A stretch of 64,000 bases of DNA from an uncultured Actinomycetota bacterium (lineage in GTDB: Bacteria; Actinomycetota; Thermoleophilia; Gaiellales; Gaiellaceae): positions 138,801 to 202,800 of the forward strand of contig CAVRQF010000007.1 in the NCBI GenBank assembly GCA_963723405.1, written 5' to 3'. The translations under genes and the position numbers were made by a program. A model generated the notes under the pieces. That model worked only from the letters and a program-made list of their open reading frames with translations, made no database searches and was not told where the DNA came from. Below are positions 10,265-60,568 of the stretch, piece by piece; positions within the stretch are counted from its first letter, which is position 1; every line of letters begins with the position of its first letter.

Positions 10265-10265
10265 C

Positions 10266-10790: not shown

Positions 10791-10959
10791 GCCCGTCGCC
10801 GACTTCGAGAACCTCGCGCTCCTCGAACGTCATGTCCATCGCCTGCCTCCTTCGTCGGATCACGGCCTGACCCCTCGCCGGATCGTCGCAGACCGACAGG
10901 ACGGGCGGTTCGTTCGCCTCGAGGCATTCGAGGCGAACGACCTCCCGTCGCGGGCCAGG

Positions 10960-11354
10960 TCAGGCCAGGGCCTTGGCCTTCAGCTGGTCGAACTCGGCCT
11001 GGCTGATCGTGCCGGTGTCGAGCAGCGCCTTCGCCTTCGAGATCTGGTCCGAGGCGGAGTCCGACGAGCCGGCGACCGACTTCACGTATGAAGTCCATGC
11101 TGGCCTGCTGCGCCTGCGCCTTCTGCCTGCGCGCGCTCGCCCATCCCCTTTCCGTTGACGATCAGGTAGATGAAGATGCCGAGGAAGGGAAGGATGATCA
11201 CGAAGATCGTCCAGAGCGCCTTCGCCCCGCCGCCGATGTCGTGGCGGCTGAACAGATCGCCGAAGACCGTGAACAGGAGCCAGAAGAACAGGATCCAGGC
11301 GAAGAAGACGAACATCGTCCACATCACCTGGCCGAACGTGTACGCAAGGAGCAC
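10960..11354 (-). CDS. PLD-nuclease-N-terminal (PLDc_N) membrane domain + SHOCT domain protein, frameshifted
   Basis: ORF 11082..11354 reads MLLAYTFGQVMWTMFVFFAWILFFWLLFTVFGDLFSRHDIGGGAKALWTIFVIILPFLGIFIYLIVNG. The C-terminal SHOCT motif (ISKAKALLDTGTISQAEFDQLKAKALA) is in frame 10960..11322. Confidence 0.65.
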
Positions 11355-11379
11355 TTAACCCTCCTGGGGTCGGGAACGA

Positions 11380-12240: not shown

Positions 12241-12302
12241 CGGCCCATTCTAGGAGTGCCGGCCGGAAGCGAACTACGGCCCGAGCCGGTAGCGTCCCCC
12301 TG

Positions 12303-32363: not shown

Positions 32364-33491
32364 CTACCCGACGCAGTCCTTCAGACCCTGCGCCTCGGGT
32401 AGCGACTCGAGCTTCTTCAACGTGTTGTTCTCGATCTGGCGGATCCGCTCGCGCGTGACCCCGAACGCCTTGCCTACCTCCTCGAGCGTGCAGGGCTGCG
32501 AGCCGTCGAGCCCGTAGCGGAGCTCGATGACGCGACGCTCGCGAATCGGGAGCGACGCGAGCGCGCTCTCGATGTCCGAGCGGCGGAGGGTCAGCGAGGC
32601 TGACTCGAACGGCGACTCGGCCTCCTGGTCCTCGACGAAGTCGCCGAGCTCGGAGTCCTCCTCCTCGCCGATCGGCTTCTCGAGCGAGATCGGATGCTGC
32701 GCCATGCGCAGGATCTCGCGGACGTCATCGGTCGACATCTCGAGCTCCTCGGCGATCTCCTCCGGGAAGGGCTCTCGTCCGAGCCTCTGAACGAGCTGCC
32801 GCTCGATGTGAACGACCTTGTTGAGCTTCTCGACCATGTGGACGGGGATCCGGATCGTCCGGGCCTTGTCCGCGATCGCCCGCGTGACGGCCTGGCGGAT
32901 CCACCATGTCGCGTACGTGGAGAACTTGAACCCTTTGCGGTAGTCGAACTTCTCGACCGCGCGGATGAGACCGAGCGAGCCCTCCTGGATCAGGTCGAGA
33001 AATGAGAGGCCCCGTCCGAGGTACCCCTTCGCAATCGACACGACCAGGCGGAGATTCGCCTCGATCATCTGGGACTTTGCGAGCATGTCGCCGCGCTCGA
33101 TCCGCTTGGCCAGATAGACCTCCTGGTCGGCGGTGAGGAGCGGCACCCGCCCGATCTCGCGCAGGTAGAGCCTGAGCGAGTCCAGCGAAGGCTCGACGGT
33201 GAGGTCGAGCTTCGGTGAGTTCTTCTCCTCCGGAACGAGCGGCTGCTCGTGTGGAAGCGCCTTGTGCTGCTCGCCCTCGACGAGCTCGACGCCGTGATCG
33301 ATCAGATACGTCGTGAAGTCCTCGAGCTGTTCCTTGGTGAGCTCCACTTCCTCCACACCCGCGACGATCTCGTCGTAGGTGAGGAAGCCCTTTTCCTTCC
33401 CCGTCTCGACAAGCTTGTGGAGCTCTTCTACTTCGGGTAGGGAGATGTCGACCGTGAGCAACTGACCCCAACCTCCGGCTCGGATGACCAA
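32364..33491 (-). CDS. rpoD: RNA polymerase sigma-70 factor, RpoD/SigA-like (regions 1.2-4 present)
   Basis: Intact ORF: ...[27 protein letters not shown]...[82 protein letters not shown]...[21 protein letters not shown]...[45 protein letters not shown]. The track start is TTG 33491. An alternative TTG at 33461 has GGAGG 10 nt upstream. Confidence 0.85.
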
Positions 33492-36662: not shown

Positions 36663-36736
36663 GGGGGCGTAGTTCAGCTGGTTAGAACGCCGGCCTGTCA
36701 CGCCGGAGGTCGCGGGTTCGAGTCCCGTCGCTCCCG
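36663..36736 (+). tRNA. tRNA-Asp (anticodon GTC)
   Basis: Manual cloverleaf of 74 nt, CCA not encoded. Acceptor GGGGGCG/CGCTCCC (one G-U). D arm GTTC-AGCTGGTTA-GAAC. Anticodon arm CCGGC-CTGTCAC-GCCGG. Variable AGGTC. T arm GCGGG-TTCGAGT-CCCGT. Discriminator G. Confidence 0.93.
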
Positions 36737-36738
36737 CT
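36711..36738 (+). repeat. attL-like direct repeat (3' end of tRNA-Asp)
   Basis: CGCGGGTTCGAGTCCCGTCGCTCCCGCT is identical to 46604-46631. Confidence 0.8.
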
Positions 36739-37468: not shown

Positions 37469-37568
37469 GGAAACAAGCTGTCGGAAGAGACCCAGACTGC
37501 GACACGCCTCCAAGCGACTGTAGTGATGACGCCTCTTCGACCGTCCCTCGATGGCTTCGGGTGATGAG

Positions 37569-37690
37569 TTAGGGCGACATGCTCTCAGCCATTTTCAGAT
37601 GCATCTTCAAGATCGGCAACGCCGCGGTCGCCGCGCTCTTGAGCGCGGTCGCTGCCCGTGCTGGTCCGACTCGCCGTCGAGGGTCGGTTT
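37569..37690 (-). pseudogene. DUF4142 C-terminal fragment (inverted copy of the 3' end of gene 44670..45170)
   Basis: Encodes ...ALKSAATAALPILKMHLKMAESMSP*, versus ...ALKSAATAALPILKMHLNMAESMST* at 45170. About 105 nt align at roughly 85-90% identity in inverted orientation (by eye). Confidence 0.65.
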
Positions 37691-37695
37691 CCGGC

Positions 37696-37969
37696 TTAGT
37701 AGAGGCGATGGTTGCTCGCACGTCTCGCCCATTCGACGAGCCACGCGACGGTCTCTTCGGCTTCCGCCGGTTGGCGACACCAGGCACGGAAACTCGCGCC
37801 CGAGCAGTGGAACTCGTGGGCGAGTGGCCGAGGAGATGATCTCCATGCGCATCGAGTAACGCTCAGTCAGGCTTCCAAGGTGGCGCAACGACGCCGCGTT
37901 AGAAGGCACGACGAACTCAACGTCAACAACCTGCCTTCCTGTCATAGCTGACGTATTGGGCTGGAACAT
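37696..37969 (-). CDS. Small conserved ORF, paralog of 49965..50273, frameshifted (function unknown)
   Basis: Reads MFQPNTSAMTGRQVVDVEFVVPSNAASLRHLGSLTERYSMRMEIISS, then after a frameshift AEETVAWLVEWARRASNHRLY* (TAA 37696-37698). The paralog reads RVVEVEFGGASAAALLRHLGSLTERHAMRMEILS...AELTVAALVEWVRRASS. Confidence 0.45.
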
Positions 37970-39480: not shown

Positions 39481-40201
39481 GTCCAGGGAATGCCCAAACG
39501 GAAGTCTCCAGAAACACCCCGTAGGATCTCCGGCTCCGCCATGTGGAGGTGGCAATCCTCCGTTTGCGAACTCGAGGGCATGTGCTCGTTACACGCCGTC
39601 CGTCGTATGCCGCGACGCGGTCATGCCGATCCTCACCGGCTCTGGAAGTCGGCGTGCAGCTCGGGCACACAGTAAGCGGCGCGCGACGTCACCTCAGGCG
39701 CTTCGCCCCGGCGCTGCAGCCTGCGGCCCATCTGCAGCCCGGTCGGGCTGTAGATGCGGGATGGTCGGGTCGGAGGACAGGTTGAGGTGCGCAGCGACCT
39801 TCGGCGCGCAGTCAGCGAACAACCGCTGGATGCCGTGCCCAACTAGGCGGCGGCGCTGACCCGGCAGAGATTCCGACAAGTCCGATCCAGGTATTTCTCG
39901 CCGCGTTCTTCCCTCGCCGTGCGTGACTCGGCAGGCACCTCGCACAAGTTCTGTGGGGGTCTCGAGCTGGCTGGAGTGCCGCAGCTGGCCCAGGTTGAGT
40001 GGATCGAGCCGGAGCCGCCTGAGGGTGTGAGGCGGTCGAGGTCGAGGTACGTCGCGATGACGAGATCGCGAAGATGGTCTCTCTTTGACGTTGAGCGTTG
40101 GCGCCATCATCACGTCGACGGCGGGCTTTCCCGCGCGGCCGTCAGGCATCAGAATCCTGACCTGCCTCGGCGTCGCGAGCGCACCGAGCAGGGGGCTTCG
40201 G

Positions 40202-40570
40202 TTAGAGGGGGGCTCTCATTCGGATTGTCGTGCCGTGCGGTTCGCTGGTTATTTCGACGTGGGGCATGAGGACGCTGATCATCATGAGGCCGCGTCCACG
40301 CTCGTCGTTGTCGAAGCGTGCGTGCTTCCAGGTGCCGGTATCGGTGACCGCGACCGTGAGGCTGTCTTGCTCGATCGCTGCGCGGACTTCGACCGTCACG
40401 CAAGGCTCGGCGTGTTCGATCGCGTTCGCGGCGGCTTCATGGGTGGCGAGAATGACTGAGCTTCTCAGCTCGTCGGAAAGCTCGGTCTGGTCCAGCCATG
40501 TGCCGAGGTCACGGCGAAGCTCACCGAGCCGGCTGAGTTCGCAGGGGAGGGATGCCACGAAGACCTCCAC
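40202..40570 (-). CDS. RsbW/SpoIIAB-like anti-sigma-factor-type Ser kinase (HATPase_c_2), cassette A
   Basis: From GTG 40570: VEVFVASLPCELSRLGELRRDLGTWLDQTELSDELRSSVILATHEAAANAIEHAEPCVTVEVRAAIEQDSLTVAVTDTGTWKHARFDNDERGRGLMMISVLMPHVEITSEPHGTTIRMRAPL. The N-box is EAAANAIEHA and the G2-like box is GRGL. It is 94/122 identical to 49593..49961 by my count. Confidence 0.8.
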   Translation of the reverse strand: MEVFVASLPCELSRLGELRRDLGTWLDQTELSDELRSSVILATHEAAANAIEHAEPCVTVEVRAAIEQDSLTVAVTDTGTWKHARFDNDERGRGLMMISVLMPHVEITSEPHGTTIRMRAPL

Positions 40571-40609
40571 TTGCGGGTTAATTCCGCGAGGCGTCGAAAC
40601 CAAACACGG

Positions 40610-40945
40610 TCACGCCAACGCCTGCTCACGGTCTGGGACGCAGTCGAGATGCTCTAGGAGACCGCTGATTTCAAGAGCCGTGCGAACGATCATGGCGGTG
40701 CCGAGCTGTAGACGCAGCCGCGACCCTCGGCTCCGGGCGAGCCGGTCAGCCAGCGCAAGGTTGTGAAGGAACGAGGAGTCGATGAACTGCGCGTCCGTTA
40801 CGTCGATGACGACGAGATCGTTCGTCTCGACCAGCGAGGTGAAGAGCTCTCGAACGTCAGTCTTGGTCGCGACGTCGTGCTCACCATGCACCTCGACAAC
40901 GGCGGCTCCGACCCTGGGCCGGAGCACATGGAGATCGGGGATCAT
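40610..40945 (-). CDS. STAS domain anti-sigma-factor antagonist (RsbV/SpoIIAA-like), cassette A
   Basis: AAGGAG precedes ATG 40945: MIPDLHVLRPRVGAAVVEVHGEHDVATKTDVRELFTSLVETNDLVVIDVTDAQFIDSSFLHNLALADRLARSRGSRLRLQLGTAMIVRTALEISGLLEHL. The phosphorylatable-Ser context is FIDSS. Confidence 0.8.
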   Translation of the reverse strand: MIPDLHVLRPRVGAAVVEVHGEHDVATKTDVRELFTSLVETNDLVVIDVTDAQFIDSSFLHNLALADRLARSRGSRLRLQLGTAMIVRTALEISGLLEHLDCVPDREQALA

Positions 40946-41061
40946 CTGAGTTCTCCTTCGAACATGAGGACATCGGGACAGTTCGTCTTCAAGCCGGAAG
41001 TTCTCTCGGTTCCTGTTGATCCGTTTCGGTTGGAGGGCGAGCCTCGTGGTTGCTCGCCAGC

Positions 41062-41412
41062 TCACGTTGGGCCTCGACCGCCGAGGGTCGAGTCGTCTCC
41101 GAGTTCGGTCACGCCGAAGAGCCCGAGGAGCGCCCCGACGTCCTGCCCCTCTTGGGCGGGGTGCCGCATCGCGATCGAGGGGTTCACCCGGTAGCGGTTG
41201 CGACGGCCGACTCGAACACGCTCCAGATATCCGGACTCGACCAGGTCGGTGACGATCCGATGCGCTGCTCGCTCCGTGATCCCGACCTTCAACGCGATCT
41301 CGCGCAGGCGGACGTTGGGGTCTCGGGAGATGCAGAGGAGTACCTGCGTGTGGTTCGACAAGAAGTGCCACGACTTGTTCTCGCCATCTGACATACCGGA
41401 CTTTTTTAGCAT
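41062..41412 (-). CDS. Winged-helix (MarR/ArsR-like HTH) DNA-binding protein, cassette A
   Basis: From Met16 of ORF 41062..41457: MLKKSGMSDGENKSWHFLSNHTQVLLCISRDPNVRLREIALKVGITERAAHRIVTDLVESGYLERVRVGRRNRYRVNPSIAMRHPAQEGQDVGALLGL. Confidence 0.75.
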   Translation of the reverse strand: MLKKSGMSDGENKSWHFLSNHTQVLLCISRDPNVRLREIALKVGITERAAHRIVTDLVESGYLERVRVGRRNRYRVNPSIAMRHPAQEGQDVGALLGLFGVTELGDDSTLGGRGPT

Positions 41413-41445
41413 AACTTTCTTAGCATGTCTAGTCTGTCCGCAGAA
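41392..41445 (-). promoter_or_regulatory. Conserved upstream/5' region shared by both cassettes (candidate promoter-operator with ATGCTAA direct repeat)
   Basis: Minus strand here: TTCTGCGGACAGACTAGACATGCTAAGAAAGTTATGCTAAAAAAGTCCGGTATG. At 48792-48845: TTCTGTGGACAACTTAGACAGGCTAAAGAAGTTATGCTAAAAATGTCCGGTATG. Confidence 0.35.
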
Positions 41446-41478
41446 GCATCTCGGCAATCACGCACCAAGCTCCAAGGC

Positions 41479-41510
41479 GCGGGGCGTGGCGCCTGGTCGC
41501 CACGCCCCGC
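41479..41510. other. Perfect 13-bp GC hairpin upstream of cassette A
   Basis: GCGGGGCGTGGCG-CCTGGT-CGCCACGCCCCGC. There is no U-tract on either strand. Confidence 0.3.
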
Positions 41511-41775
41511 CACACCCGAGGACGACACGAGCAGGCGATCGCGATCTACCGCTATCCGGCCGCAGCCGAGCCAGGGACACGACCCGGCGACGATGCGCTG
41601 CATCGGCTCGAGCAGATCTTCTAACGTCAAAGCGCCGGCAGACCCAGGCCTGAAGACACTCTTCACCGAGCGCATCCCGACCCATGCCGACCACCTGACC
41701 CGAACCGCTCACTCTGACCTGTTCCTCGGCCCGGCACAAGGCGCTCTTTCGGCCCTGTCCTTCGGGTTCGAGCGT

Positions 41776-42096
41776 TTAGGGCTTCCGCAAGTACCTCCCG
41801 CGTACCCTGAACCAGTCCGTTGCCCCGAGCCACGCGACGGCTGCAGTCCAAGCGTCCTCCGAATAGCCGTTCGCGTTCAGCCGCGCGCTGAACACGGACC
41901 TCAAAGCCATCGGCATGTCCGGGTACGCGGTCTTCAGGCGCGCTTCCATCAGAAGCATTCGATCCAGAACGTCTTGAGGGCCACCCGCCTCGACGTGCGT
42001 ACGCATCTCGACCTCTTCCAGCGCGAGCCGTAACCAGAGCGCAGGACCGTCCCCGCGGGGCTCCTCCTCCTCCTCCTTCGCGTTGCGGCGCCGCAT
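41776..42096 (-). CDS. Hypothetical protein (island cargo, unknown function)
   Basis: ORF reads ...MRTHVEAGGPQDVLDRMLLMEARLKTAYPDMPMALRSVFSARLNANGYSEDAWTAAVAWLGATDWFRVRGRYLRKP. The composition is protein-like, but I recognise no family. Confidence 0.3.
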   Translation of the reverse strand: MRRRNAKEEEEEPRGDGPALWLRLALEEVEMRTHVEAGGPQDVLDRMLLMEARLKTAYPDMPMALRSVFSARLNANGYSEDAWTAAVAWLGATDWFRVRGRYLRKP

Positions 42097-42536
42097 CAGT
42101 GCCTCGCGGCATACCCACGTTCCCGCACGCCGAACCCATTGCTCGGATCGTTGAACCTAACGGCATACACTCTGGCTGCCCTGCCTCTGTCCGCCTCCAA
42201 GCGGGTGCGTCCATGGCATTAGCTGTAGGACCTGAACACGGTGGCTGCGAGACGAGATTGGGCCACGGCTTCACTATCGCCATTTGTCGTCGCGCAGTAA
42301 GAGCAGCGCTCCACCCCGGAGCTCGTAGCCTTCCCCTCCTTACGCGCACGGCGGAAAGCCTCCCGGCGCCGCTCAACTTTCCCGGCCTCCCGCTTCGTGT
42401 ACCCGTTTGGGCTCGTCTGTTTGCACCGACCTCGCGGCACGGACGAGCGCCGCACGTCAACCGCTGCGCGCCCTCGAGCACGACGCCGCACTCCGACGAG
42501 GCCTTCGCCTCGACCGGGTTCCAGCGTGAAAGGACA

Positions 42537-42680
42537 TTACGTCTCGTCGTCGACCTTCCAATTCGCCGGACTGCACGCCTCGCAGAACCGGCGGGGACGG
42601 CCACGCCCAGGACGCCGCTCGAAACTTACGCCGCACGACTCGCACGCCCGGGGGGCGGGTCCAACGGGCGACGAGATTCA
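42537..42680 (-). pseudogene. Zinc-ribbon (CxxC...FCxxC) protein fragment typical of actinobacterial mobile elements
   Basis: The minus frame reads PVGPAPRACESCGVSFERRPGRGRPRRFCEACSPANWKVDDET* (TAA 42537-42539) with no usable start codon. A second CG..TCG..PC fragment lies just downstream in another frame. Confidence 0.3.
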
Positions 42681-43232
42681 CGCGCCATTCCCGTTGCGAG
42701 TGGAAATGTTACGCCCCGAGTTCTGGAGCCAGGTCGGAGAGATGCTGACGAGCCCGCGAGATTCGAACTCAACGTCAACGACGTGTGTCGCTGTTAAGAC
42801 CGACGTCTCAACCTCGGACATACGCTCTGTGTTTCCCGATATAAGGCGCGGCATTAACCAAACAGCCTGTACTCGAGCCTCGTATTTTGGGATGCATCGG
42901 AATCAAAGGACCGGGTCGCCATCGGTGATCGCTCAGCTCGTGATCGCAGACGAGGCCAACGTTCGATCGCTTCAGCGTCGCGAGCTGAACGCCGGCTTCG
43001 CCCACGTCCGGCTCCACGCGGACGCGCGCGTGAGCGTCGAAATCGACGACCAAGCCCGGCTCCTGCGCCTCGCACAACAGAGGTGAGGTGACCTAGGGAT
43101 GTGCTCAACTTCTCCGACCGGGGCCGGGACGGGTTCCGCTCGGAGCGCGCAGCTGCGGCTCTGAATGACCGGGCCGCAGTCGACGACGCCTCGATGCCGT
43201 GTTGCGGGCGCTACGGACGCGGCACCGTGGCG

Positions 43233-43901
43233 CTATCGGGACGGCCCCTGGCCGAGCGGGGTGTGGTCGAGTTCCCGGGTGAGTTCCGGCAGCGAGTCGT
43301 AGACTGCGACGGCGCCGGCGTCGAGGAGCTCCTGGCTCGACCAGCCGCCGGTGAGGACGCAGATCGTCTCGAGGCCCGCGCCGGCTGCGGCCTCGATGTC
43401 CCAGCGGGAGTCGCCAACCATGACGGCGTGCGCCGGCTGCTCCGCCTTCGCGAGAGCGGCGTGGACGATGTCGGGATGCGGCTTCGAGCGTTCTACATCG
43501 TCGGAGGTCGTCCAGTCGTCGATCAGGTCCCGGACGCCGAGGACCGTGAGGAAATGGTCGAGATCGTTCCGGCCCGCAGAGGATGCGAGGATCGTTGCGA
43601 TGCCGCGGCGGCGCAGCTCTCCGACAAGCCCCGCGGCGCCGTGGAGAGGCTCGCACTCGTCGCGGATCGTCCCGAATTCGCTCTCCTTCTGTTCGCGAAG
43701 CCGGTCTCCGAGGCTGCGCTCGACATCGTCGTCTGTCAGGGCCTTGACGATCTGGTCGCCACCCATGCCGATGTGGCGGTGTATGCGCCAAACCGGCAGG
43801 ACGATGCCCTGCCCACGGAACGCCCGGTACCAGGCGAGCGCGTGATGGTAGTTCGTGTCGACAAGCGTGCCGTCGAGATCGAGCAGCGCGGCGGTAGGCA
43901 T
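43233..43901 (-). CDS. HAD family hydrolase (beta-phosphoglucomutase/phosphatase-like)
   Basis: From Met92 of ORF 43233..44174: MPTAALLDLDGTLVDTNYHHALAWYRAFRGQGIVLPVWRIHRHIGMGGDQ...ILASSAGRNDLDHFL...DVERSKPHPDIVHAALAKA...VMVGDSRWDIEAAAGAGLETICVLTGG. Confidence 0.8.
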   Translation of the reverse strand: MPTAALLDLDGTLVDTNYHHALAWYRAFRGQGIVLPVWRIHRHIGMGGDQIVKALTDDDVERSLGDRLREQKESEFGTIRDECEPLHGAAGLVGELRRRGIATILASSAGRNDLDHFLTVLGVRDLIDDWTTSDDVERSKPHPDIVHAALAKAEQPAHAVMVGDSRWDIEAAAGAGLETICVLTGGWSSQELLDAGAVAVYDSLPELTRELDHTPLGQGPSR

Positions 43902-43910
43902 CTTCGCCTC

Positions 43911-43937
43911 GTACCAACCGACGGGGTGTATGAAACC
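43911..43937 (-). promoter_or_regulatory. Weaker sigmaB/sigmaF-type promoter candidate (GGTTT-N16-TGGTAC) before the HAD gene
   Basis: The minus strand reads GGTTTcatacaccccgtcggtTGGTAC, 9 nt before ATG 43901. Confidence 0.25.
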
Positions 43938-44615
43938 GAGCCGCCCGATAATGCATGGAAGAAATGAAGCGGCCAGGAGGTCGCAGGGCCGCTGCTCGCG
44001 CCGCGTCAGCAGCCTCGCCCCATCCGTGATCCCGGCGCTTGCGGCGCTTTCATGAAGGGTTAGGCGTGGCCGTCGGAGGCCGCACCATCCGCTAGCTTCG
44101 CGGGAGAGCACGGTCGATCGTGTTCGGAAGCTGTAGCCGCGGCCAAGGGTGGACGCGCCGGAGGCGGCGCCCATTCGAGAAAGCGGTACTTCGAGCGAGA
44201 TCTCGTCGGCGGGCGCGTCGCGGTGCGTGACGGAGCAGAGTCGTCGAAGCTTCCTTCGCTCCGTCCTTCGCCTTCTCTGCGTTCTTGGCCTTCGCAGCCG
44301 CGCGGCTCGCGCTCGTCGTGAGCGTGCCCGACAGGTCCTCGGACTCCTTAGGCAGGAGTCGGAGTCGACGAACTCGCTCGAAACATTGCCGTCCCATTCG
44401 CGACGCTGCGTCCGAGGGGGAGCGGCACACCACTGAGTAGCGTTTATCCCCGAAACGGCTGGCAGGCCGCCCGAGGGCGCCGACCTAGAAGGCTATGAGC
44501 ACCTCACCAGCAGTCACGTAGGGTGCTGCGACGTTCAGGTCTGGGAGGTTCTCGGCGAGCCACGCGGCGGCGACCCGATTCGACTCGTGCCCGCCTGGTC
44601 CTCGCACTCGCCGAT

Positions 44616-44640
44616 GTGTATCGCAGCCCGGCGGGGGTAG
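44616..44640 (+). promoter_or_regulatory. Candidate sigmaB/sigmaF-type promoter (GTGT-N15-GGGTAG) for the DUF4142 gene
   Basis: GTGTatcgcagcccggcggGGGTAG lies about 30 nt upstream of ATG 44670, with the GAGGAGGGG SD in between. Confidence 0.3.
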
Positions 44641-44669
44641 AGCAGGGGAAACACGACCGAGGAGGGGAG

Positions 44670-45170
44670 ATGCATAAGCGCGCCCTACTGCTCACACTCG
44701 TTCTTGCGTCAGGGTTTGTCACGATGGCGGCAGCTGCGCCCGGACCCACGAACCAGGACCGAACGTTCGTAATGACCGCGGGCCACGCCGGCGCTGCCGA
44801 AATCGCCGCGGCGAAGCTGGCGCTGACGAAAACGAACAACTCGTCGACGGTCGCGTTTGCGCGGCGAATGATCCGCGACCACACGATGCTGGCGGCGAAG
44901 TTGACCTCGACAGCCCGGGCCGTCGGACTGATGCCCCCGACCACGCCGAGCCCGGCACAGACAGCCTCGATCGAGGCGCTCCGCAAGCTCAGCGGGACGG
45001 CGTTCCTGCAGAAGTACCGCCTGAGCCAGATCTCCGCTCACAAGGACGCGGTCGCGCTCTTCACGGCCGAGTCCGAGCGCGGGCAGACACCAGCTCTCAA
45101 GAGCGCGGCGACCGCGGCCCTGCCGATCTTGAAGATGCATCTGAACATGGCCGAGAGCATGTCGACCTGA
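44670..45170 (+). CDS. DUF4142 domain-containing secreted protein
   Basis: From the internal ATG of ORF 44523..45170: MHKRALLLTLVLASGFVTMAAAAPGPTNQDRTFVMTAGHAGAAEIAAAKLALTKTNNSSTVAFARRMIRDHTMLAAKLTSTARAVGLMPP...FLQKYRLSQISAHKDAVALFTAES.... Confidence 0.8.
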   Translation: MHKRALLLTLVLASGFVTMAAAAPGPTNQDRTFVMTAGHAGAAEIAAAKLALTKTNNSSTVAFARRMIRDHTMLAAKLTSTARAVGLMPPTTPSPAQTASIEALRKLSGTAFLQKYRLSQISAHKDAVALFTAESERGQTPALKSAATAALPILKMHLNMAESMST

Positions 45171-45174
45171 CTCG

Positions 45175-45335
45175 CCCCATCAGGCCGCGTCCACGCTCGA
45201 CGTTGTCGAAGCTTGCGTGTTTCCAGGTGCCGGTGTCCAGTTTGTCCAGGAACTCGATCTGATCTAGACACTCGGCGAGCTCGAGGCGAAGCGCGCGAGA
45301 CGAGATCGACCTCGTCCGGGGTCCTCATCGGATCG
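45175..45335 (-). pseudogene. Third, internally deleted copy of the RsbW-like kinase gene
   Basis: The minus strand reads ...LELAECLDQIEFLDKL-DTGTWKHASFDNVERGRGLMG. It matches the kinase N-terminal segment (L..WLDQ...DKL) and the DTGTWK..FDN.ERGRGLM block, but lacks the ~45 aa between them. Positions 45181-45240 align with 40280-40335 of cassette A. Confidence 0.5.
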
Positions 45336-45815
45336 TCGAGGAGATCGACCCGACGAGCGTTTTGCCATGAGCCGAAGGAGAACGATGATGGGGACATCGC
45401 GGTTGGGCGAGGGAATTGCAGCCTCGGGAAGGATCGGTGCCTGCGGAGCGGGCGCATCACAGGACTTACTGAAATCGTTGTCTTGTCCGCCTACAACCCG
45501 AGGGGGTCTGGATGGGGCAGGATCTCCGGTGAACCACATGGAAGAGGGGGCACGCCCTAGACCAGTAGTTCGGCTAGATCCCTGCTATGAGTGGCGTCTC
45601 GGCACGGTCCGAGTGTTGCGCTCTTCGTTCGGCCGACAGTCTCGTCGGATGCGCGAGCGGCCCCGTACGGCTGGCCGTTGACTTCGCCCCGCGTCGACCT
45701 TCAGGCGTTCGTTCTGGACCATTCGTCTGTCGGGACGAGCGGAACTGAACCGAACAGCGCGGCGCCCGAAGCTCGGGCGCCGCGCTCGTCGAGAGGCTTC
45801 GTTCGCTAGCCGGGT

Positions 45816-46346
45816 CTAGGCGTCGCTGCCGTCGTCGGTGCCGACGACGTGGATGTCGACGTACATACCGCCCGACTCGTGGCCCGTCGTCTGGCAGAGG
45901 AGTCGATACCAACCGTGCTTCAGGAGGACCTTCGTTGTCGAATCGACCTCCGTGCTCGTGCCACACGGTGCGGCAGGGTTAGCCGCCGCGGGATCGTTAC
46001 AGATCGGCGTGAGTTCCTGAGCGGCCGACCCCACGGGCCCACACGCCGAGTCTGACCTCGGGCAGCTTCTGAGCGCGATGTTGTGCATGCCGCTCGTGTC
46101 GGCCGCCGACAGCCAGTAGGTGCCCGGGTTGATCGTCAAAACCTGGTGCACAGCCCCGTGCCCCAACGCATCGGAGTCACCGAACTTGACGTCGATGCAA
46201 CCGAAGACGCCCGCCCCGCAACTGAACGATGCATTCAGGGTCCGACCCTGCGCCGACGACTTCCCCGCCATCAGCGCGAACGCGATTGCCACCGCTGCCA
46301 CGACGAGGAGCGGGAGTGCCACACGATAGTTGGATGCTTTCTTCAC
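45816..46346 (-). CDS. Secreted cupredoxin-like (type-1 copper, plastocyanin-like ligand pattern) protein
   Basis: Intact ORF with signal peptide MKKASNYRVALPLLVVAAVAIAFALMAGKSSAQG. Candidate ligands are GMHNIAL (His) and LLCQTTGHESGGMYV (Cys-x4-His-x4-Met) near the C-terminus. Confidence 0.55.
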   Translation of the reverse strand: MKKASNYRVALPLLVVAAVAIAFALMAGKSSAQGRTLNASFSCGAGVFGCIDVKFGDSDALGHGAVHQVLTINPGTYWLSAADTSGMHNIALRSCPRSDSACGPVGSAAQELTPICNDPAAANPAAPCGTSTEVDSTTKVLLKHGWYRLLCQTTGHESGGMYVDIHVVGTDDGSDA

Positions 46347-46603
46347 TGACGTTCCCCTTTACCCAGTTGTCTTGTCCGAACGAGCAGGAATGCGTTCAGG
46401 TCCCCCCGTTGGCGCACCTATTGCGACCCGGCCGCAGAAACTCACCGTCTCACAGGATCAGGGCGAAGTCAACTTGCAAGATCGGACGGGCGGATTCGAA
46501 CCGAGCCTTCTGCTCCCAAAGCCAATCGGGGCCGTGGCACGAACTCCGCAGACCGAAATGGCTTGTCTACACAGCGCTCGGCCGCTCTCGGCACCCCAGT
46601 ACA

Positions 46604-46631
46604 CGCGGGTTCGAGTCCCGTCGCTCCCGCT
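46604..46631 (+). repeat. attR-like direct repeat (displaced tRNA-Asp 3' end)
   Basis: CGCGGGTTCGAGTCCCGTCGCTCCCGCT is identical to 36711-36738. It is followed by a hairpin (46643-46672) that could be the original tRNA terminator. Confidence 0.75.
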
Positions 46632-46860
46632 CTCGAAAACCCCGCATCCCGCCTAGCTTGCGGCCGGATGCGCGTCGTCCAACCGGCGAAGCCCGTGCCG
46701 CACACGTCGTCTCGGGTCGGTGACTCGCGTCGACGCGCAAGGATGCGAGCGTGTCCGGGACGGTCCGTCGACGCCGCGACTCGCGCCGCGGAGCTCGTCG
46801 ACGGGCGCCGGCCGAGCAGCACGAAGTGAAGCCGTGCTGGGCTCGACCTAGACTCACGCC

Positions 46861-47028
46861 GTGCCGTACCACGCGCAGAAGACCGGGCAGGTCAGGCCGG
46901 GACTCAAGATCCATGAGCTGAAGGCCGACAACCGTGCGGTCTGCGGCAACTCGCGCCGGCAACCGATGGACGACCTCGGGCCCGGAACGGTGACGTGCGA
47001 ATCCTGCGCGCGGGACACCGGCCACTGA
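46861..47028 (+). CDS. Hypothetical 55-aa Cys-containing small protein (doubtful)
   Basis: GTG 46861: (M)PYHAQKTGQVRPGLKIHELKADNRAVCGNSRRQPMDDLGPGTVTCESCARDTGH*. It is below the track length cut-off, and I see no homology. Confidence 0.2.
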   Translation: MPYHAQKTGQVRPGLKIHELKADNRAVCGNSRRQPMDDLGPGTVTCESCARDTGH

Positions 47029-47062
47029 TCCGCATCAACCGAGCGATATTCGGGAGGCCTGA

Positions 47063-48223
47063 GTGGCCAGATTGCGGGCGATCGAGGCGCCATGGCGCAC
47101 TATCGTTCGGCGAGTGGATCCCAACGGTGCTCTGACTGAGCTTGCGTTGTCGCTTGTTGAGACGGAGTCGGTGAATCCGGGGCTCGCGGCCGACGGGTCG
47201 GGAGAGGGCGAAGCGGCCGAGGTCGTTGCGGAATGGTCTCGGGCGGCGGGGCTGCAGGTCGAGCTCGATTATGTTCTGCCCGGCCGGCCGAACGTGGTGG
47301 TAACTGCGCCTGGCACGGGAAGCGGCCGGACCCTGTTGCTGAACGGGCACCTCGACACGGTGGGCGTCACCGGGATGGAGTACCCGTTCGCTGCGGATGT
47401 GCGCGACGGGCGGCTTTACGGGCGTGGCGCCTACGACATGAAGGGTGCGCTGGCCGCCGCGCTCGTCGCCGCAGCCCAGTTGCGACACGAGAAGCTCGCG
47501 GGCGACGTCGTGGTGGCGTGCGTCATCGATGAAGAGCTTGGCTCCGCCGGGACCGAGCGGCTGGTGACATCGCGAACCGCCGACGCGGCGATCGTCTGCG
47601 AGCCGACCGATGAGCGTGTCTGCATCGCGCACAAGGGATTCGTGGGCTTCGAGGTCGAGACACGTGGCCGTGCCGCTCACGGTTCGCGGCCGGATCTCGG
47701 TGTTGACGCGATCGCGGCGATGGGACCGGTGCTGATCCGGCTCCAACAGTTGGCCGACTCGCTCGAACAGGAGGCCGGGTCACCCGCTCCTCGGTGCCGG
47801 CTCGATCCACGCCTCACTGATCGAGGGCGGCCAAGAGTATTCGAGTTACCCGGAGCGATGCCTGTTGACCGGTGAGCGACGCACCGTGCCGGGGGAGTCG
47901 ACGGCCGACATCGAGGAGGAGTTGCGTGGCCTGGTCGGCCAAACCGATGCGAACGTCCGGATCACGTTTGCCCGCCACCCATTCGAGATCGACGCTGCGG
48001 CAGATTGCCGCGACAGGTCGCGCGATGTGCCGGAGATGACCGTTTCCATGGGATCGCGTTCTGGACGGACGCCGCGCTCGTAGCCGAAGCGGGTATTCCT
48101 ACCGTCCTCTATGGGCCGCGCGGGTCTGGAGCACACGCGAGCGAGGAATGGGTTGAGCTCGCAAGTCTGGAACGATGCGCCCGCGTCTACCTTGAAACCG
48201 CTCGCGCACTCTGCGCCGCATAG
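47063..48223 (+). CDS. M20 family metallopeptidase (ArgE/DapE/acetylornithine deacetylase-like), frameshifted
   Basis: ORF 47063..47875 reads ...LVETESVNPG...LLLNGHLDTVGVTGMEYPFAADVRDGRLYGRGAYDMKGALAAALVAA...VVVACVIDEELGSAGT...IVCEPTDERVCIAHKGFVGFEVETRGRAAHGSRPDLGVDAI. It continues in two other frames (SIHASLIEGGQEYSSYPERCLLTGERRTVPGES, then FWTDAALVAEAGIPTVLYGPRGSGAHASEEWVELASL). Confidence 0.75.
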
Positions 48224-48313
48224 ATCACCGCGGTTCATCGACGGCGCAGGGGTTCTCGTTCGGCCCACGTCCTCCCAGCCTCACCGAGCGGCGCGGCTAG
48301 CGTTCGCTGAACG

Positions 48314-48742
48314 ATGCGCGAGCTCGAGACAACCGAACTGAGAGCGTTTCTGCTCGCGGGCACGCGGACTGCGAAGGTCGCGGTTGTGCGTCGAGACGGG
48401 TCACCCCTGGTGACGCCGGTCTGGTTCCTCCCCGACGAGGACGGGTCGATCGTGTTCGAGACGGGTCGGAGCTCCGTGAAAGGCCGCGCGCTCTCACGCG
48501 ATCCGCGGGTGTCGATCTGCGTCGAGGATGACGAGCCCCCGTTCGGGTTCGTTCGCGTCGACGGGATCGCAGAGCTCTCCGATGACCACGACGAGCTGCT
48601 GTCGTGGACGATCAGGATCGCGGCGCGCTACATGGGCGAGGATCTTGCGGAGGAGTTCGGTCGCCGGAACGCAGCTCCGAGCGAGATGCTCGTGCGGGTG
48701 CGACCCCATCGCATCATCGCGCAGGTCGAGTTGGCCGACTGA
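48314..48742 (+). CDS. PPOX-class (pyridoxamine 5'-phosphate oxidase fold) probable F420-dependent enzyme
   Basis: Intact ORF: MRELETTELRAFLLAGTRTAKVAVVRRDGSPLVTPVWFLPDEDGSIVFETGRSSVKGRALSRDPRVSICVEDDEPPFGFVRVDGIAEL.... Confidence 0.8.
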   Translation: MRELETTELRAFLLAGTRTAKVAVVRRDGSPLVTPVWFLPDEDGSIVFETGRSSVKGRALSRDPRVSICVEDDEPPFGFVRVDGIAELSDDHDELLSWTIRIAARYMGEDLAEEFGRRNAAPSEMLVRVRPHRIIAQVELAD

Positions 48743-48824
48743 CACCTCGCCGAGAGCGCCACGTTCACCGATTCTCGGGTACTCGAGGTGGTTCTGTGGA
48801 CAACTTAGACAGGCTAAAGAAGTT

Positions 48825-49163
48825 ATGCTAAAAATGTCCGGTATGGCTGGTACTGCAATCAAGCCTTGGCGATTCCTGTCGAATCACGCCCAGGTGCTCC
48901 TCTGCATCTCGCATGACCCCAACGCCCGTCTACGCGAGATCGCGCTGGAGGTCGAGATCACGGAACGAGCAGCGCATCGCATCCTGACCGACCTGATCGA
49001 GGCGGGATACGTGGAGCGTGTTCGGGTCGGCCGTCGCAACCGTTATCTGGTGGACCCATCGGTTGCGATGCGGCACCCTGCTCAACACGGACAGGAGGTC
49101 GGAGCGTTACTCGGGCTCCTGGACGTGAGCGATCTCCAGGAACCTGGAGGAGGTCCGGAATGA
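48825..49163 (+). CDS. Winged-helix (MarR/ArsR-like HTH) DNA-binding protein, cassette B
   Basis: From the internal ATG of ORF 48528..49163: MLKMSGMAGTAIKPWRFLSNHAQVLLCISHDPNARLREIALEVEITERAAHRILTDLIEAGYVERVRVGRRNRYLVDPSVAMRHPAQHGQEVGALLGL. Confidence 0.75.
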   Translation: MLKMSGMAGTAIKPWRFLSNHAQVLLCISHDPNARLREIALEVEITERAAHRILTDLIEAGYVERVRVGRRNRYLVDPSVAMRHPAQHGQEVGALLGLLDVSDLQEPGGGPE

Positions 49164-49218
49164 CGGCAAGGCCGCCTACACGATGCCTTCATGTCCTCGT
49201 GTACGAAGGAGAACCCAG

Positions 49219-49554
49219 ATGAGTCGCGATCTCCATGTGCTGGTACCGAGAGCCGGCGCAGCCGTGGTCGAACTACATGGTGAGCACGACATAGCCACCA
49301 GGACCGAGGTTCGAGAGCTGTTGGCCTCGCTGGTCGAGGCGAACGATCTCATCGTTGTCGACGTGACGGAAGCTCTCTTCATCGATTCGTCGTTCCTTCA
49401 CAATCTTGCGCTGGCGGATCGTCTTGCGCGGACCCGAGGTTCGCGGTTGCGCCTACAACTCGGCACAGCCTCGATCGTTCGCACGGCTCTTGAAGTCAGC
49501 GGTCTTCTGAAGCGTCTCGATTGCGTCGCAGACCGTGAGGAGGCGATGGCTTGA
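49219..49554 (+). CDS. STAS domain anti-sigma-factor antagonist, cassette B
   Basis: AAGGAG precedes ATG 49219: MSRDLHVLVPRAGAAVVELHGEHDIATRTEVRELLASLVEANDLIVVDVTEALFIDSSFLHNLALADRLARTRGSRLRLQLGTASIVRTALEVSGLLKRL. Confidence 0.8.
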   Translation: MSRDLHVLVPRAGAAVVELHGEHDIATRTEVRELLASLVEANDLIVVDVTEALFIDSSFLHNLALADRLARTRGSRLRLQLGTASIVRTALEVSGLLKRLDCVADREEAMA

Positions 49555-49592
49555 CCGGCTTCAGATCCCGCGCCCCGGGGAACTAGGGCGGA

Positions 49593-49961
49593 GTGGAGAC
49601 CTTCGTGACGACCCTCGCCTGCGAGCCGACGCGACTCCGTGAGCTTCGCCACGACCTCGCCGCGTGGCTGGATCAGCTCCAGCTCGTGGACAAGCTGCGA
49701 AGCGCAGTCATCCTCGCCGCCCACGAGGCTGCGGCAAACGCAATCGAGCATGCCGAGCCTTGCACATCGGTCGAAGTCCGCGCAGCGATCGAGCAAGACA
49801 CCATCACGATCGCCGTCACCGACACCGGCACCTGGAAAGACGCAAGCTTCGACAACGACGAGCGTGGACGCGGGCTGATGATGATCAGCGTCCTCATGCC
49901 CTACGTCGAGATCTCGAGCGAACCCCGCGGCACCACAATCCGAATGAGCGCCCGTCTCTGA
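49593..49961 (+). CDS. RsbW/SpoIIAB-like Ser kinase (HATPase_c_2), cassette B
   Basis: Intact ORF: (M)ETFVTTLACEPTRLRELRHDLAAWLDQLQLVDKLRSAVILAAHEAAANAIEHAEPCTSVEVRAAIEQDTITIAVTDTGTWKDASFDNDERGRGLMMISVLMPYVEISSEPRGTTIRMSARL. Confidence 0.8.
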   Translation: METFVTTLACEPTRLRELRHDLAAWLDQLQLVDKLRSAVILAAHEAAANAIEHAEPCTSVEVRAAIEQDTITIAVTDTGTWKDASFDNDERGRGLMMISVLMPYVEISSEPRGTTIRMSARL

Positions 49962-49964
49962 TCG

Positions 49965-50273
49965 ATGCGAGGCGCCCAACCTGCAAACAGGCAGATGCCA
50001 CGACTCCGGACGCCGGCTGCAACGACAACCCGCGTCGTCGAGGTCGAGTTCGGCGGCGCCTCCGCTGCGGCGTTGTTACGACACCTCGGAAGCCTGACCG
50101 AGCGTCACGCAATGCGGATGGAGATCCTCTCCCCCGGTTCGTCGACAGCACCTCCCTCTCGGGCGCGGATCACCGTGCCTCGTGCCGCGAGCCATCGCGA
50201 AGCCGAACTGACAGTCGCCGCACTGGTCGAATGGGTGCGACGCGCGAGCAGCCGTTCACCTCAGCGAGCCTGA
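49965..50273 (+). CDS. Small conserved ORF (102 aa), fourth gene of cassette B, unknown function
   Basis: The ATG lies 3 nt after the kinase stop: MRGAQPANRQMPRLRTPAATTTRVVEVEFGGASAAALLRHLGSLTERHAMRMEILSPGSS...AELTVAALVEWVRRASS. A frameshifted paralog sits at 37696..37969, which argues that it is a real gene. Confidence 0.5.
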   Translation: MRGAQPANRQMPRLRTPAATTTRVVEVEFGGASAAALLRHLGSLTERHAMRMEILSPGSSTAPPSRARITVPRAASHREAELTVAALVEWVRRASSRSPQRA

Positions 50274-58927: not shown

Positions 58928-60568
58928 ATGACGTTCAAGGCAGGAAGGCGACTAGCAATCGGAGCGGCGACGCTCCTGCTCATCGCGGCGACGACAGCCG
59001 AGACGGCGGGCGCGCAGGACGCGACCAGGCAACAGGGCAAGCGGCACGCCCACCACCAGCGCCACTACCCGGGCTGGGGCATCAACCTCGATCTCCGGCT
59101 CAGCGTCTCGCCGGTCGTAGCGGCACCCGGCGGTCAGGTGACCTATACCGCGACCGTCACGAACCGGGGCCGCCGAAGCGCGCCGAGCGCAGGGTTCCTG
59201 AACCGGATCCCGAGGCAGACGACGTTCGTCTCGTCGACTGCGAGCCAGGGCAGCTGCAGCGGCAGCCGGCTCGTCTACTGCAACCTCGGCGCGCTTGCCC
59301 CCCGCACCAGCGCGACCGTCACCATCGTCGTGACCGCCGGCGGCACCGGCTGGATCAACGACACCGGCTGGGTCTCGAACAACCCGCCAAGGCACTGGCA
59401 GGACGCAAAGAGTGTCGGGAGCTGGGTTCGCAACACGAGCCCCGATCTCGACCTTGCCCTCACGGGCTCGCCGGGATCGGTGAGCACCGGCCAGCAGGTC
59501 ACCTACGCTGCGACGATCACCAATCGCGGCTCGGGCGCAGCCTCGACCGCCGGGTTCCAGGACGTGATCCCTGACGGCAGCACCCTCGTCTCGGCCTCGC
59601 CGAGCCAGGGCACCTGCAGCGGCAGCCCGACCATCGTCTGCAGCCTCGGCTCGCTGAGCCCGGGAGCGAGCGCGACCGTCACGGTCGTCGTGACCCCCAC
59701 CCACGCCGGCTACATCACCGATCGCGGTTGGGTCTCCACCAGCCCGCCGGGCAGCTGGCAGCACGAGCGGTCGGTCACGACGGCGGTCCGGGACTCGAGG
59801 CCCGACCTCGACTTCCACCTCGTCGGCTCTCCCTCTGCGGTCGACACCGGACAGCAGGTCACCTACACGGCGACGATCGGCAACCACGGCTCCGGCGCCG
59901 CCCCGACCGCAGCGTTCCAGGACCTGATCTCGCCGAAGACCACGCTCGTGTCGGCCACCCCGAGCCAGGGCACCTGCAGCGGCAGCCCGACGGTCGTCTG
60001 CAACCTGGGCGCACTCAATGCCGGCGCGACCGCGACCGTCACGATCGTCGTGACCACGACCCAGTCGGGGAACGCCACCGATCGGGGCTGGATCTCGACC
60101 AACCCGCCCGGCGACTGGCGCCACGAGCGTGACGTCACGACAACCGTGCGCGACGTCAAGGCCGATCTCGACTTCCACCTGGTCGGATCGCCCTCGTCGG
60201 TCACCGCCGGCCAGCAGGTCACCTACACGGCGACGATCGGCAACCACGGCTCCGGCACGGCGGCCACCGCCGGCTTCCAGGATGTGATCCCGGGCAAGAC
60301 CACGCTCGTCTCGGCCACCCCGAGCCAGGGCACCTGCACCGGCAGCCAGACGATCGCCTGCAACCTCGGCTCGCTGGCACCGGGGGCGACGGCGACCGTC
60401 ACGATCATCGTCGCGACGACACAGCCCGGCTCGATCATCGACCGCGGCTGGGTCTCGACGACCCCGCCCGGCAACTGGCAGCACGAACGTGACGTCGTCA
60501 CGGACGTGAACGTTGCGCCCCCGGCTCCCGCCGCGACGACCACGACGACGACCACCACCTCGAAGTAG
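58928..60568 (+). CDS. Secreted DUF11 (conserved repeat domain) protein with four 120-aa tandem repeats and a poly-Thr C-terminus
   Basis: Intact 546-aa ORF with signal-like AIGAATLLLIAATTAETAGA. The repeat units start at residues 54, 173, 293 and 413 (DLDxxL..SP..V..GQQVTY.ATI.N.GSG.A....FQD.IP..T.LVSA.PSQGTC.GS.T..C.LG.L..GA.ATVT..V......G...DRGWVST.PPG.W.HER). It ends in PPAPAATTTTTTTTSK. Confidence 0.85.
   Translation: MTFKAGRRLAIGAATLLLIAATTAETAGAQDATRQQGKRHAHHQRHYPGWGINLDLRLSVSPVVAAPGGQVTYTATVTNRGRRSAPSAGFLNRIPRQTTFVSSTASQGSCSGSRLVYCNLGALAPRTSATVTIVVTAGGTGWINDTGWVSNNPPRHWQDAKSVGSWVRNTSPDLDLALTGSPGSVSTGQQVTYAATITNRGSGAASTAGFQDVIPDGSTLVSASPSQGTCSGSPTIVCSLGSLSPGASATVTVVVTPTHAGYITDRGWVSTSPPGSWQHERSVTTAVRDSRPDLDFHLVGSPSAVDTGQQVTYTATIGNHGSGAAPTAAFQDLISPKTTLVSATPSQGTCSGSPTVVCNLGALNAGATATVTIVVTTTQSGNATDRGWISTNPPGDWRHERDVTTTVRDVKADLDFHLVGSPSSVTAGQQVTYTATIGNHGSGTAATAGFQDVIPGKTTLVSATPSQGTCTGSQTIACNLGSLAPGATATVTIIVATTQPGSIIDRGWVSTTPPGNWQHERDVVTDVNVAPPAPAATTTTTTTTSK
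59084..60508 (+). repeat. 4 x 360-bp coding tandem repeat inside the DUF11 gene
   Basis: The period is exactly 120 codons. Units 3 and 4 share long identical nucleotide runs (for example CAGCAGGTCACCTACACGGCGACGATCGGCAACCACGGCTCCGGC). Confidence 0.85.

Follow-up and report, generated by a model that had tools for sequence, protein, structure and literature searches.

Partner switching is a textbook route to sigma-factor control, and Actinobacteria carry dozens of orphan RsbW and RsbV homologues, for most of which the targets are not known. In the CapK/CapS system, the GHKL kinase CapK, with the domain order HTH-STAS-GHKL, phosphorylates the STAS serine of CapS, a repressor that joins a STAS domain to a winged helix-turn-helix (wHTH) domain, and this phosphorylation breaks the CapS dimer and frees CapS from DNA (Chambers et al., EMBO J 2026, PMC13373217). 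Here we analyzed a 64-kb stretch of contig CAVRQF010000007.1 from an uncultured Gaiellaceae bacterium (the window, always meaning the whole 64 kb), which carries two similar cassettes, A and B, each with genes for a wHTH protein, a STAS protein and an RsbW-like kinase. Our results leave us evenly poised over the reading that we favor, namely that these cassettes encode a sigma-independent, CapK/CapS-like switch in which a kinase-controlled STAS protein modulates an autoregulatory wHTH factor.

The likeness to CapK/CapS comprises an anti-sigma-like GHKL kinase, a conserved STAS serine as its target (putative in the window), a wHTH protein that autoregulates its own promoter (likewise putative in the window) and the lack of a sigma factor. 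The domain order of CapK is also the gene order of the window cassettes, although CapK is one polypeptide and the window has three separate genes. Similarly, CapS is a STAS-wHTH fusion, whereas the corresponding window proteins are separate and their relatives are fused in the reverse order, wHTH-STAS. CapK/CapS immediately precedes an immune operon (such as CBASS or Bub), whereas no recognizable one follows the window cassettes, and PADLOC found nothing in the window beyond generic wHTH similarity. In addition, the hosts of CapK/CapS are mainly Proteobacteria, whereas the window family belongs to Actinomycetota/Thermoleophilia. The window modules and CapK/CapS are apparently of independent origin. 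A literature search for HTH-STAS and STAS-wHTH architectures matched only the CapK/CapS work, so the actinobacterial system appears to be undescribed in the literature searched.

Other described systems resemble single parts of the cassette. Rv1364c of M. tuberculosis (PAS-PP2C-RsbW-like kinase-STAS), which is tied to SigF regulation, contains the kinase motifs D.G.WKD...GRGRGL as the window kinase does, but it is a single multidomain protein without a wHTH, while the window has separate genes. The RsbA-type MEDS-HATPase_c_2 regulators (NCBIfam NF041045) have exactly the architecture of the kinase that follows the wHTH-STAS fusions described below, whereas the window kinases have no MEDS domain. 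The pairs RsbV-RsbW and SpoIIAA-SpoIIAB share with the window a single-domain STAS protein with a DSS serine beside a small HATPase_c_2 kinase, and many actinobacterial RsbV/RsbW homologues (RsfB/UsfX and BldG-type orphans) likewise have no adjoining sigma gene (PMC8346170). Unlike RsbV-RsbW, the family studied here has no SigB/F-type sigma gene in cis in about 90 loci, and a dedicated wHTH is linked or fused to its STAS protein; the hallmark of RsbW/SpoIIAB, a cognate group-3 sigma factor in the same operon, is missing from the window cassettes.

Organization of the Two Cassettes

The window was annotated from open reading frames (ORFs), GC content at third codon positions (GC3) and Pfam. An initial annotation, made from the sequence without database searches, had proposed two collinear modules, and the ORF list and Pfam hidden Markov model (HMM) searches confirmed them at the following places.

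Cassette A, 41394->40202, minus strand: wHTH, STAS and kinase genes, from the ORF list and Pfam scan
wHTH_A, 41062..41394, minus strand: 110 amino acids (aa)
STAS_A, 40610..40945, minus strand: 111 aa, Ser57 in FIDSS
Kinase_A, 40202..40570, minus strand: 122 aa from GTG, or 133 aa if the TTG at 40603 upstream is the start
Cassette B, 48843->49961, plus strand: wHTH, STAS and kinase genes, from the ORF list and Pfam scan
wHTH_B, 48843..49163, plus strand: 106 aa, MarR/ArsR-like minimal winged helix plus a C-terminal helix, from Pfam, AlphaFold2 (AF2) and Foldseek
STAS_B, 49219..49554, plus strand: 111 aa, RsbV/SpoIIAA-like, putative phospho-acceptor Ser57 in FIDSS, from Pfam
Kinase_B, 49593..49961, plus strand: 122 aa, predicted RsbW-type HATPase_c_2 serine kinase, Pfam E 1.9e-24

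In both cassettes, Pfam assigned the first protein to HTH_24/HTH_IclR/MarR_2, the second to STAS/STAS_2 and the third to HATPase_c_2 (E 1e-23 to 1e-24). Alignment with 65 related loci placed the wHTH start at the second ATG (48843 in B and 41394 in A); the winged-helix protein of about 115 aa that had been proposed is therefore present, but with lengths of 106 and 110 aa. The three separate genes of a cassette are spaced by gaps of 55 and 38 nt, and sequence reading located a strong GAAGGAG ribosome-binding site upstream of STAS_A. Each cassette forms a self-contained three-gene operon that is probably autoregulated.

Comparison of the copies by tblastn gave protein identities of 73.6% for the wHTH, 79.3% for the STAS protein and 77.0% for the kinase (94/122), in agreement with the earlier figures of 94/122 for the kinases and about 80% for the STAS proteins. 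At the DNA level, the cassettes form inverted repeats of 81% identity (40195-40973 with 49191-49968, and 41101-41453 with 48784-49136), far above chance. The substitutions between A and B fall mostly at third codon positions in all three genes, and both copies are therefore under purifying selection. The cassettes had been described as facing each other; their orientation is head-to-head, so that they are transcribed divergently, with 7.4 kb between their starts.

The Winged-Helix Protein Family

A word-indexed search found at least 1262 homologues of the window wHTH, and 2824 clusters at 50% identity were obtained at E <= 1e-10. Members are about 100 aa long and share the invariant motifs GRRNRY and MRHPAQ. 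This family is large, unnamed and uncharacterized, and it is centred on Thermoleophilia and Actinomycetes. No NCBIfam model matched the wHTH or its alternative (non-STAS) partner proteins, and PDB sequence and profile searches found no homologue of the wHTH. The MarR_2 scores were close to the cut-off of 27 bits (28.8 bits for wHTH_A and 27.4 for wHTH_B), and HTH_24 and HTH_IclR also scored above their cut-offs.

The AF2 model of wHTH_B (pLDDT 75) has an H-H-H-wing-H topology, in which the HTH is preceded, and the wing followed, by a single helix. Foldseek returned MarR, ArsR and AspA proteins as the best matches of this model, which were generic (TM about 0.5) and covered the MarR targets only partly. 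The window wHTH and the MarR family have the winged helix-turn-helix in common, but MarR proteins are about 140-150 aa long and contain N- and C-terminal dimer/ligand helices, which the window proteins of 106-110 aa do not. By AF2 and Foldseek, the wHTH thus consists of a DNA-binding fold and one helix, with no effector-binding domain. A metagenomic protein of 379 aa (P0183) is a fusion of a wHTH of the same family with GAF and PAS sensor domains. Together, the bare fold and this fusion fit the wHTH as an output domain that takes the input of a partner.

In three further members (P0140, P0169 and P0266), two distinct segments of the protein match the family profile, which suggests tandem duplicated wHTH domains. 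The family alignment (A1) also showed invariant His21 and His84, a nearly invariant Cys27 and strong conservation of the MRHPAQ loop, which follows the wing and precedes the last helix. A metal, redox or partner-binding site could be formed by these residues and the loop.

Linkage and Fusion of wHTH and STAS

A one-genome-per-species scan yielded at least 568 confirmed wHTH loci, mostly from Thermoleophilia/Gaiellales metagenome-assembled genomes (MAGs), with some from Pseudonocardia, Nonomuraea and Chloroflexota; neighborhoods were counted in the best 80 of them. Based on HMM and Pfam-verified assignment, a STAS gene lies directly upstream of and divergent from the wHTH gene in 36 of the 80. 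Pfam STAS matched all 39 proteins of a set comprising these 36 linked proteins, the window proteins and one fusion, and the only invariant columns in the alignment of this set were Phe54 and Ser57. The FIDSS Ser57 of the window proteins aligns with the serine of the SpoIIAA FMDSS sequence (DSS motif). Among close relatives (at least 70% identity), a co-directional wHTH-STAS-HATPase_c_2 triad was found in the loci L001, L099 and L100, with unrelated flanks. Elsewhere, the wHTH gene of L031 is divergent from a STAS gene that is followed by a gene for a dCache-SpoIIE-HATPase_c_2 protein, and L053 has an extra RsbW-like kinase and a second STAS protein. About 3 kb from its triad, L099 also contains a second signaling set (10080-12363; STAS, a SpoIIE-HATPase_c_2 fusion and a PAS protein) beside a transposase fragment.

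The two proteins are also joined in one polypeptide. Fusions of the type wHTH-STAS occur in at least 11 clusters at 90% identity, are 239-276 aa long and are 68-85% identical over their full length; one of them derives from a Streptosporangiaceae MAG (contig of 299 kb), and another occurs on 23 contigs. In the fusion P0270 (251 aa), the wHTH spans residues 4-99 and matches the family profile at E 3e-28, and the STAS domain spans residues 134-228 and keeps the serine (EFCDSTG). The wHTH part of another fusion, P0293 (L103), is 50% identical to the window wHTH. On the five contigs read, which represent two fusion clusters (P0293 and P0299), a gene for a MEDS-HATPase_c_2 kinase follows 80-105 nt downstream on the same strand, so that the order wHTH, STAS, kinase is that of the window, and no sigma gene is nearby. 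In addition, there is a distant 227-aa protein with MarR and STAS domains.

The initial annotation had named either the wHTH protein or a small fourth ORF as the output of the switch. The first of these is favored by the gene neighborhoods, in which STAS adjoins the wHTH in 36 of 80 loci and both the triads and the fusions recur, while the fourth ORF (ORF4) is not conserved. These patterns support the wHTH gene as an integral, conserved part of the module and not a chance neighbor.

In about 16 of the 44 loci without an adjacent STAS gene, a small Cys-rich protein with a 'CEC...C' motif takes the divergent position instead. It is 70-110 aa long, carries the motif W/F-x-F-x-CEC-x(2-6)-C ... EYD and is encoded just upstream of the wHTH gene in the following loci.

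Cys-rich-partner loci: L007, L010, L012, L015, L036, L038, L040, L046, L048, L051, L054, L055, L064, L068, L072

Longer Cys-rich paralogues (about 110 aa, NE..FR..N...CEC...PGHE...DPRS) lie 1-2 kb away in several STAS-type loci. Neither the Cys-rich partner nor the other small upstream ORFs matched a Pfam family, and the Cys-rich partner matched no NCBIfam family. It may be an alternative input partner, possibly metal- or redox-sensing.

The STAS Protein and the Kinase

Both window STAS proteins scored above the cut-off for Pfam STAS and STAS_2, and TIGR00377 matched only below its cut-off. Their closest solved relative is SpoIIAA, and that of the STAS part of the fusion protein is RsfB. The kinase contains the N-box HEAAANAIEH (Asn49), DTGTW at 77 and GRGL at 92. 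In NCBIfam it best matches the RsbA anti-sigma family, in the C-terminal kinase portion, and its closest solved relative is the kinase domain of Rv1364c (3ke6, E 1e-5). By sequence reading, the kinase is short (122 aa), and the DTGTW motif and the G2 box are only 9 residues apart, a spacing that is presumably short in comparison with SpoIIAB.

Sigma Factor Genes in the Window and in Related Loci

Pfam identified exactly two proteins with Sigma70_r2 (and r4) among the 86 candidate ORFs of the window.

Primary sigma factor, 32367-33491, minus strand: 375 aa with regions 1.1, 1.2, 2, 3 and 4
ECF sigma factor, 9069-9677

The earlier statement that no group-3 sigma factor is encoded in the 64 kb therefore stands, since only a primary and an ECF sigma factor were found. 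When these two proteins were used as phmmer queries against 106 fetched loci, none of the approximately 90 wHTH-family loci contained a SigB/F-type sigma gene, and one had an ECF sigma gene. As a positive control, an RpoD/SigB-like gene was detected beside kinase and STAS genes in four distant kinase loci; the control loci came from a metagenome scan with the kinase and represent relatives of 28-38% identity, all without a wHTH. The suggestion that a sigma gene was simply lost here fails, because sigma detection works and yet none adjoins the related loci. The possibility that a SigB/F-type sigma gene is usually adjacent in related loci was ruled out by the same finding. The initial annotation had called the missing sigma gene unusual, a view that we do not share: such an arrangement is ordinary in Actinobacteria, as Streptomyces coelicolor has 9 SigB homologues versus 45 RsbW and 17 RsbV homologues (PMC8346170).

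The Control Region Upstream of the wHTH Gene

A conserved block precedes the wHTH gene in both window cassettes.

Cassette B control region, 48806..48845, plus strand: TAGACA-N18-AAAAAT promoter-like site, GCTAA-N8-GCTAA direct repeat, ATG at 48843
Cassette A control region, 41392..41431, minus strand: same conserved block as in B, ATG at 41394

This block of 40 nt, which ends at the start codon (TAGACA.GCTAA....AGTTATGCTAAAAA.GTCCGGTATG), is nearly invariant in window A, window B, L001 and L082 and is more conserved than the coding sequence among these four close cassettes. In cassette B, it contains a promoter-like match, of which 0.1 would be expected by chance, and 7 nt lie between the end of its -10-like hexamer and the ATG, a spacing that suggests a leaderless transcript. 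Across the 65 related loci, positions -45 to +14 relative to the wHTH start showed a conserved block, ..ACGA.A..AA.ATACGA.A...GTC..TATGTCAAG, with ACG-containing direct repeats about 10-12 nt apart. The element is probably the promoter/operator of the wHTH family and may mark a leaderless start. Reading it as the family's promoter and operator is what leads us to propose autoregulation. The first codons of the wHTH gene are also conserved at the nucleotide level (ATGTCAAGyCCTGA) across related loci.

Proposed Mechanism and Alternative Explanations

For the switch that we propose, the domain assignments, the conserved linkage, the fusions, the invariance of the serine and the lack of sigma genes are observations, from which we infer every protein-protein, protein-DNA and phosphorylation step. 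The binding site of the wHTH would be the conserved repeat element, which overlaps both the promoter and the start codon of the wHTH gene. The STAS protein would be the regulatory partner of the wHTH, that is, its detached or, in some lineages, fused input domain, and would change wHTH oligomerization or DNA binding. The kinase would phosphorylate the invariant Ser57 of the STAS protein and in this way flip the state of the switch, and the transcriptional output would be the wHTH factor itself and not a sigma factor. A wider proposal, which we hold slightly less firmly and only tentatively, is that the whole unnamed wHTH family, whose thousands of members occur in Thermoleophilia, Actinomycetes and some Chloroflexota, serves RsbV/RsbW-type phospho-switches as their dedicated output. 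In that proposal the STAS protein would be bound or fused to the wHTH, phosphorylation by bare, MEDS-fused or Cache-PP2C-fused kinases would toggle DNA binding, the family would form a sigma-independent branch that arose independently of CapK/CapS, and the window cassettes would be two paralogous channels. If true, a class of orphan RsbW/RsbV proteins would have a dedicated winged-helix factor as its assigned output, a large unnamed wHTH family would be given a function, and the CapK/CapS logic of kinase, STAS and wHTH would extend beyond proteobacterial phage-defence loci. The prediction is directly testable with three small proteins and a 40-bp operator.

Several observations weigh against our proposal, and some of them fit the main competing explanation, in which the cassettes are orphan canonical partner switches whose STAS protein and kinase act on a distal SigB/F-like sigma factor, the wHTH being only a local (auto)regulator of the pair. 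The window STAS protein and kinase are, by their sequences, ordinary actinobacterial RsbV/RsbW types. In actinomycetes such proteins outnumber SigB-like sigma factors, SigB-like sigma factors encoded at a distance are frequent targets of orphan RsbV/RsbW proteins, and BldG has several distal partners, sigmas among them (PMC8346170). The divergent layout in 36 loci would also arise if the wHTH merely controls STAS transcription, and together with the operator-like element it fits such simple control. The wHTH family is not obligately tied to STAS, since 44 of the 80 loci have no adjacent STAS gene, and only 7 of the 80 have a kinase-like gene within 6 kb, most divergent pairs having no kinase nearby. 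Furthermore, tblastn with multidomain PP2C-kinase proteins detected no PP2C phosphatase domain in the window, so that the phospho-cycle is incomplete in cis, and no CapS entry appeared among the PDB sequence matches, the presence of CapS in the searched set being unconfirmed. We nevertheless regard action on a distal sigma factor as rather unlikely. It can hardly explain the recurrent wHTH-STAS fusions in one polypeptide, no SigB/F-type sigma gene occurs in the family loci while the distant kinases without a wHTH do adjoin sigma genes, and the wHTH itself lacks a sensor domain. A further alternative, that the kinase sequesters the wHTH like an anti-sigma factor and unphosphorylated STAS releases it by partner switching, draws on the gene order and co-transcription of the three genes and on the kinase genes that follow wHTH-STAS in the triad and fusion loci. 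We consider it improbable, because conservation and fusion link the wHTH to STAS and not to the kinase, and most wHTH-STAS pairs have no kinase nearby. The associated kinases also differ in architecture (bare, MEDS-fused or Cache-PP2C-fused), which suggests that STAS, and not the wHTH, is their common substrate. Modulation of the wHTH by STAS is therefore likelier than its sequestration by the kinase.

Two other explanations concern the small ORF after Kinase_B and the arrangement of the copies. An output or effector role for ORF4 in the switch could be argued from its location downstream of the kinase gene in two cassettes, window B and the B-like L082, between which the ORF4 frame has been preserved. 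The kinase genes of L001, L099, L100 and window A have no ORF4 behind them, however, and only 2 further homologues were found among 5.8 billion clusters. One of them (intact, on metagenome contig L102) lies downstream of the end of a DUF4142 gene, with no kinase before it, and the other (L101) is on a contig that begins 57 nt upstream of it, so that the preceding gene is not visible. ORF4 also matched no known domain in Pfam, NCBIfam or PADLOC, and AF2 gave only a low-confidence beta-alpha-beta-beta-alpha fold (pLDDT 63). An output role for ORF4 thus seems extremely improbable and is already largely refuted by its distribution. We give just as little credence to the notion that recombination between the inverted copies serves as a switch by flipping the intervening 7.4 kb. 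The inverted repeats reach about 1.2 kb, and leftovers of additional copies show that this region was rearranged in the past, but the repeats are only 81% identical, no exact match between them exceeds 33 nt and just four are 20 nt or longer. The segment between them contains genes for a HAD hydrolase, a DUF4142 protein, an unknown ORF of 176 aa, a broken M20 peptidase and a PPOX protein; no recombinase was found among the Pfam-matched coding-like ORFs there, and two such ORFs had no Pfam match. Moreover, A-like and B-like paralogues lie 230 kb apart in a relative, and cassette A lies inside a tRNA-Asp-bounded island with B outside it, so that their closeness looks incidental. The inversion by recombination between the copies that the initial annotation had suggested is for these reasons not upheld.

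The Probable Small Gene ORF4

ORF4, 49995..50273, plus strand: 92 aa from the conserved start, rare small ORF, homologue in L082
Frameshifted ORF4-like copy, 37711-37957, minus strand: 2.2 kb downstream of Kinase_A

A fourth ORF of 102 aa had been reported after Kinase_B. The ORF exists, but its conserved start at 49995 gives 92 aa and places it 33 nt after the kinase stop. In L082, an intact in-frame homologue of 92 codons follows the kinase remnant, and the differences between the two are distributed over the codon positions as 26/17/34. ORF4 has no codon-position GC bias, and frameshifting indels separate it from the copy at 37711-37957. On these grounds we had considered that it is non-coding, an idea dropped in view of the in-frame L082 homologue and the two database homologues. 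ORF4 is probably a real but very narrowly distributed small gene. Judged by its occurrence, it is not a conserved member of the cassette, and the proposal of a small fourth ORF as a conserved partner was not sustained, given its absence from the A-type and other triads and its DUF4142 context in L102. A copy of the 3' end of a DUF4142 gene (37566-37677, minus strand) adjoins the ORF4-like copy, and the full DUF4142 gene lies at 44523-45170. As the copy at 37.7 kb and L102 both adjoin a DUF4142 end, ORF4 may be linked to DUF4142 and not to the kinase. Cassette B is followed downstream by ORF4, a DUF1345 gene and a gene for a luciferase-like oxidoreductase.

History of the Copies and the Surrounding Region

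The A-type unit (39828..41464, minus strand) shares 93% DNA identity with L001 and nothing beyond its ends, where the flanks are unrelated; judged from these boundaries, the cassette behaves as a discrete unit. The 685-kb contig of L001 also has the B-like copy L082, located 230 kb from the A-like cassette. Since both types exist in this related genome, A and B appear to be old paralogues and not the result of a recent local duplication. In L082 (10391-11002), an IS630-type (DDE_3) transposase now stands in place of the kinase gene's 5' half, while wHTH, STAS and ORF4 are intact. The window also contains the remains of another kinase gene.

Decayed third kinase copy, 45178-45297, minus strand: N-box deleted

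In this remnant, the N-terminal piece LRLELAECLDQIEFLDKL is joined directly to DTGTWKHASFDNVERGRGLM (the DTGTWK..GRGLM piece), and a syntenic counterpart of 87% identity lies 3.3 kb from the A-like cassette in L001. As we read them, the kinase, ORF4 and DUF4142 remnants are signs of past rearrangement and not of a programmed switch.

The last 29 nt of a tRNA-Asp gene at 36663-36737 (CGCGGGTTCGAGTCCCGTCGCTCCCGCT) are repeated exactly at 46604-46632, 9.9 kb downstream, in the manner of attL/attR. The segment bounded in this way holds cassette A, a PRC-barrel-like ORF, the HAD hydrolase gene and the DUF4142 gene, and it has no recognizable integrase. Beyond 36.7 kb, GC3 is 0.75-0.85, down from about 0.9. 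Because of the 29-nt tRNA repeat and the drop in GC3, cassette A lies in what looks like a decayed integrated island, with B just outside. An Rfam scan of the window matched only the tRNA.

Other Features of the Window

The M20/ArgE-like peptidase gene between the cassettes (47063-48223, plus strand) is split over three frames (47063-47875, 47865-48083 and 48005-48223), and it is probably a pseudogene or contains sequencing frameshifts. At 59127-60496, tandem repeats of about 360 nt, 72-76% identical, lie on a minus-strand coding region and probably encode repeated domains of a DUF11-type surface protein.

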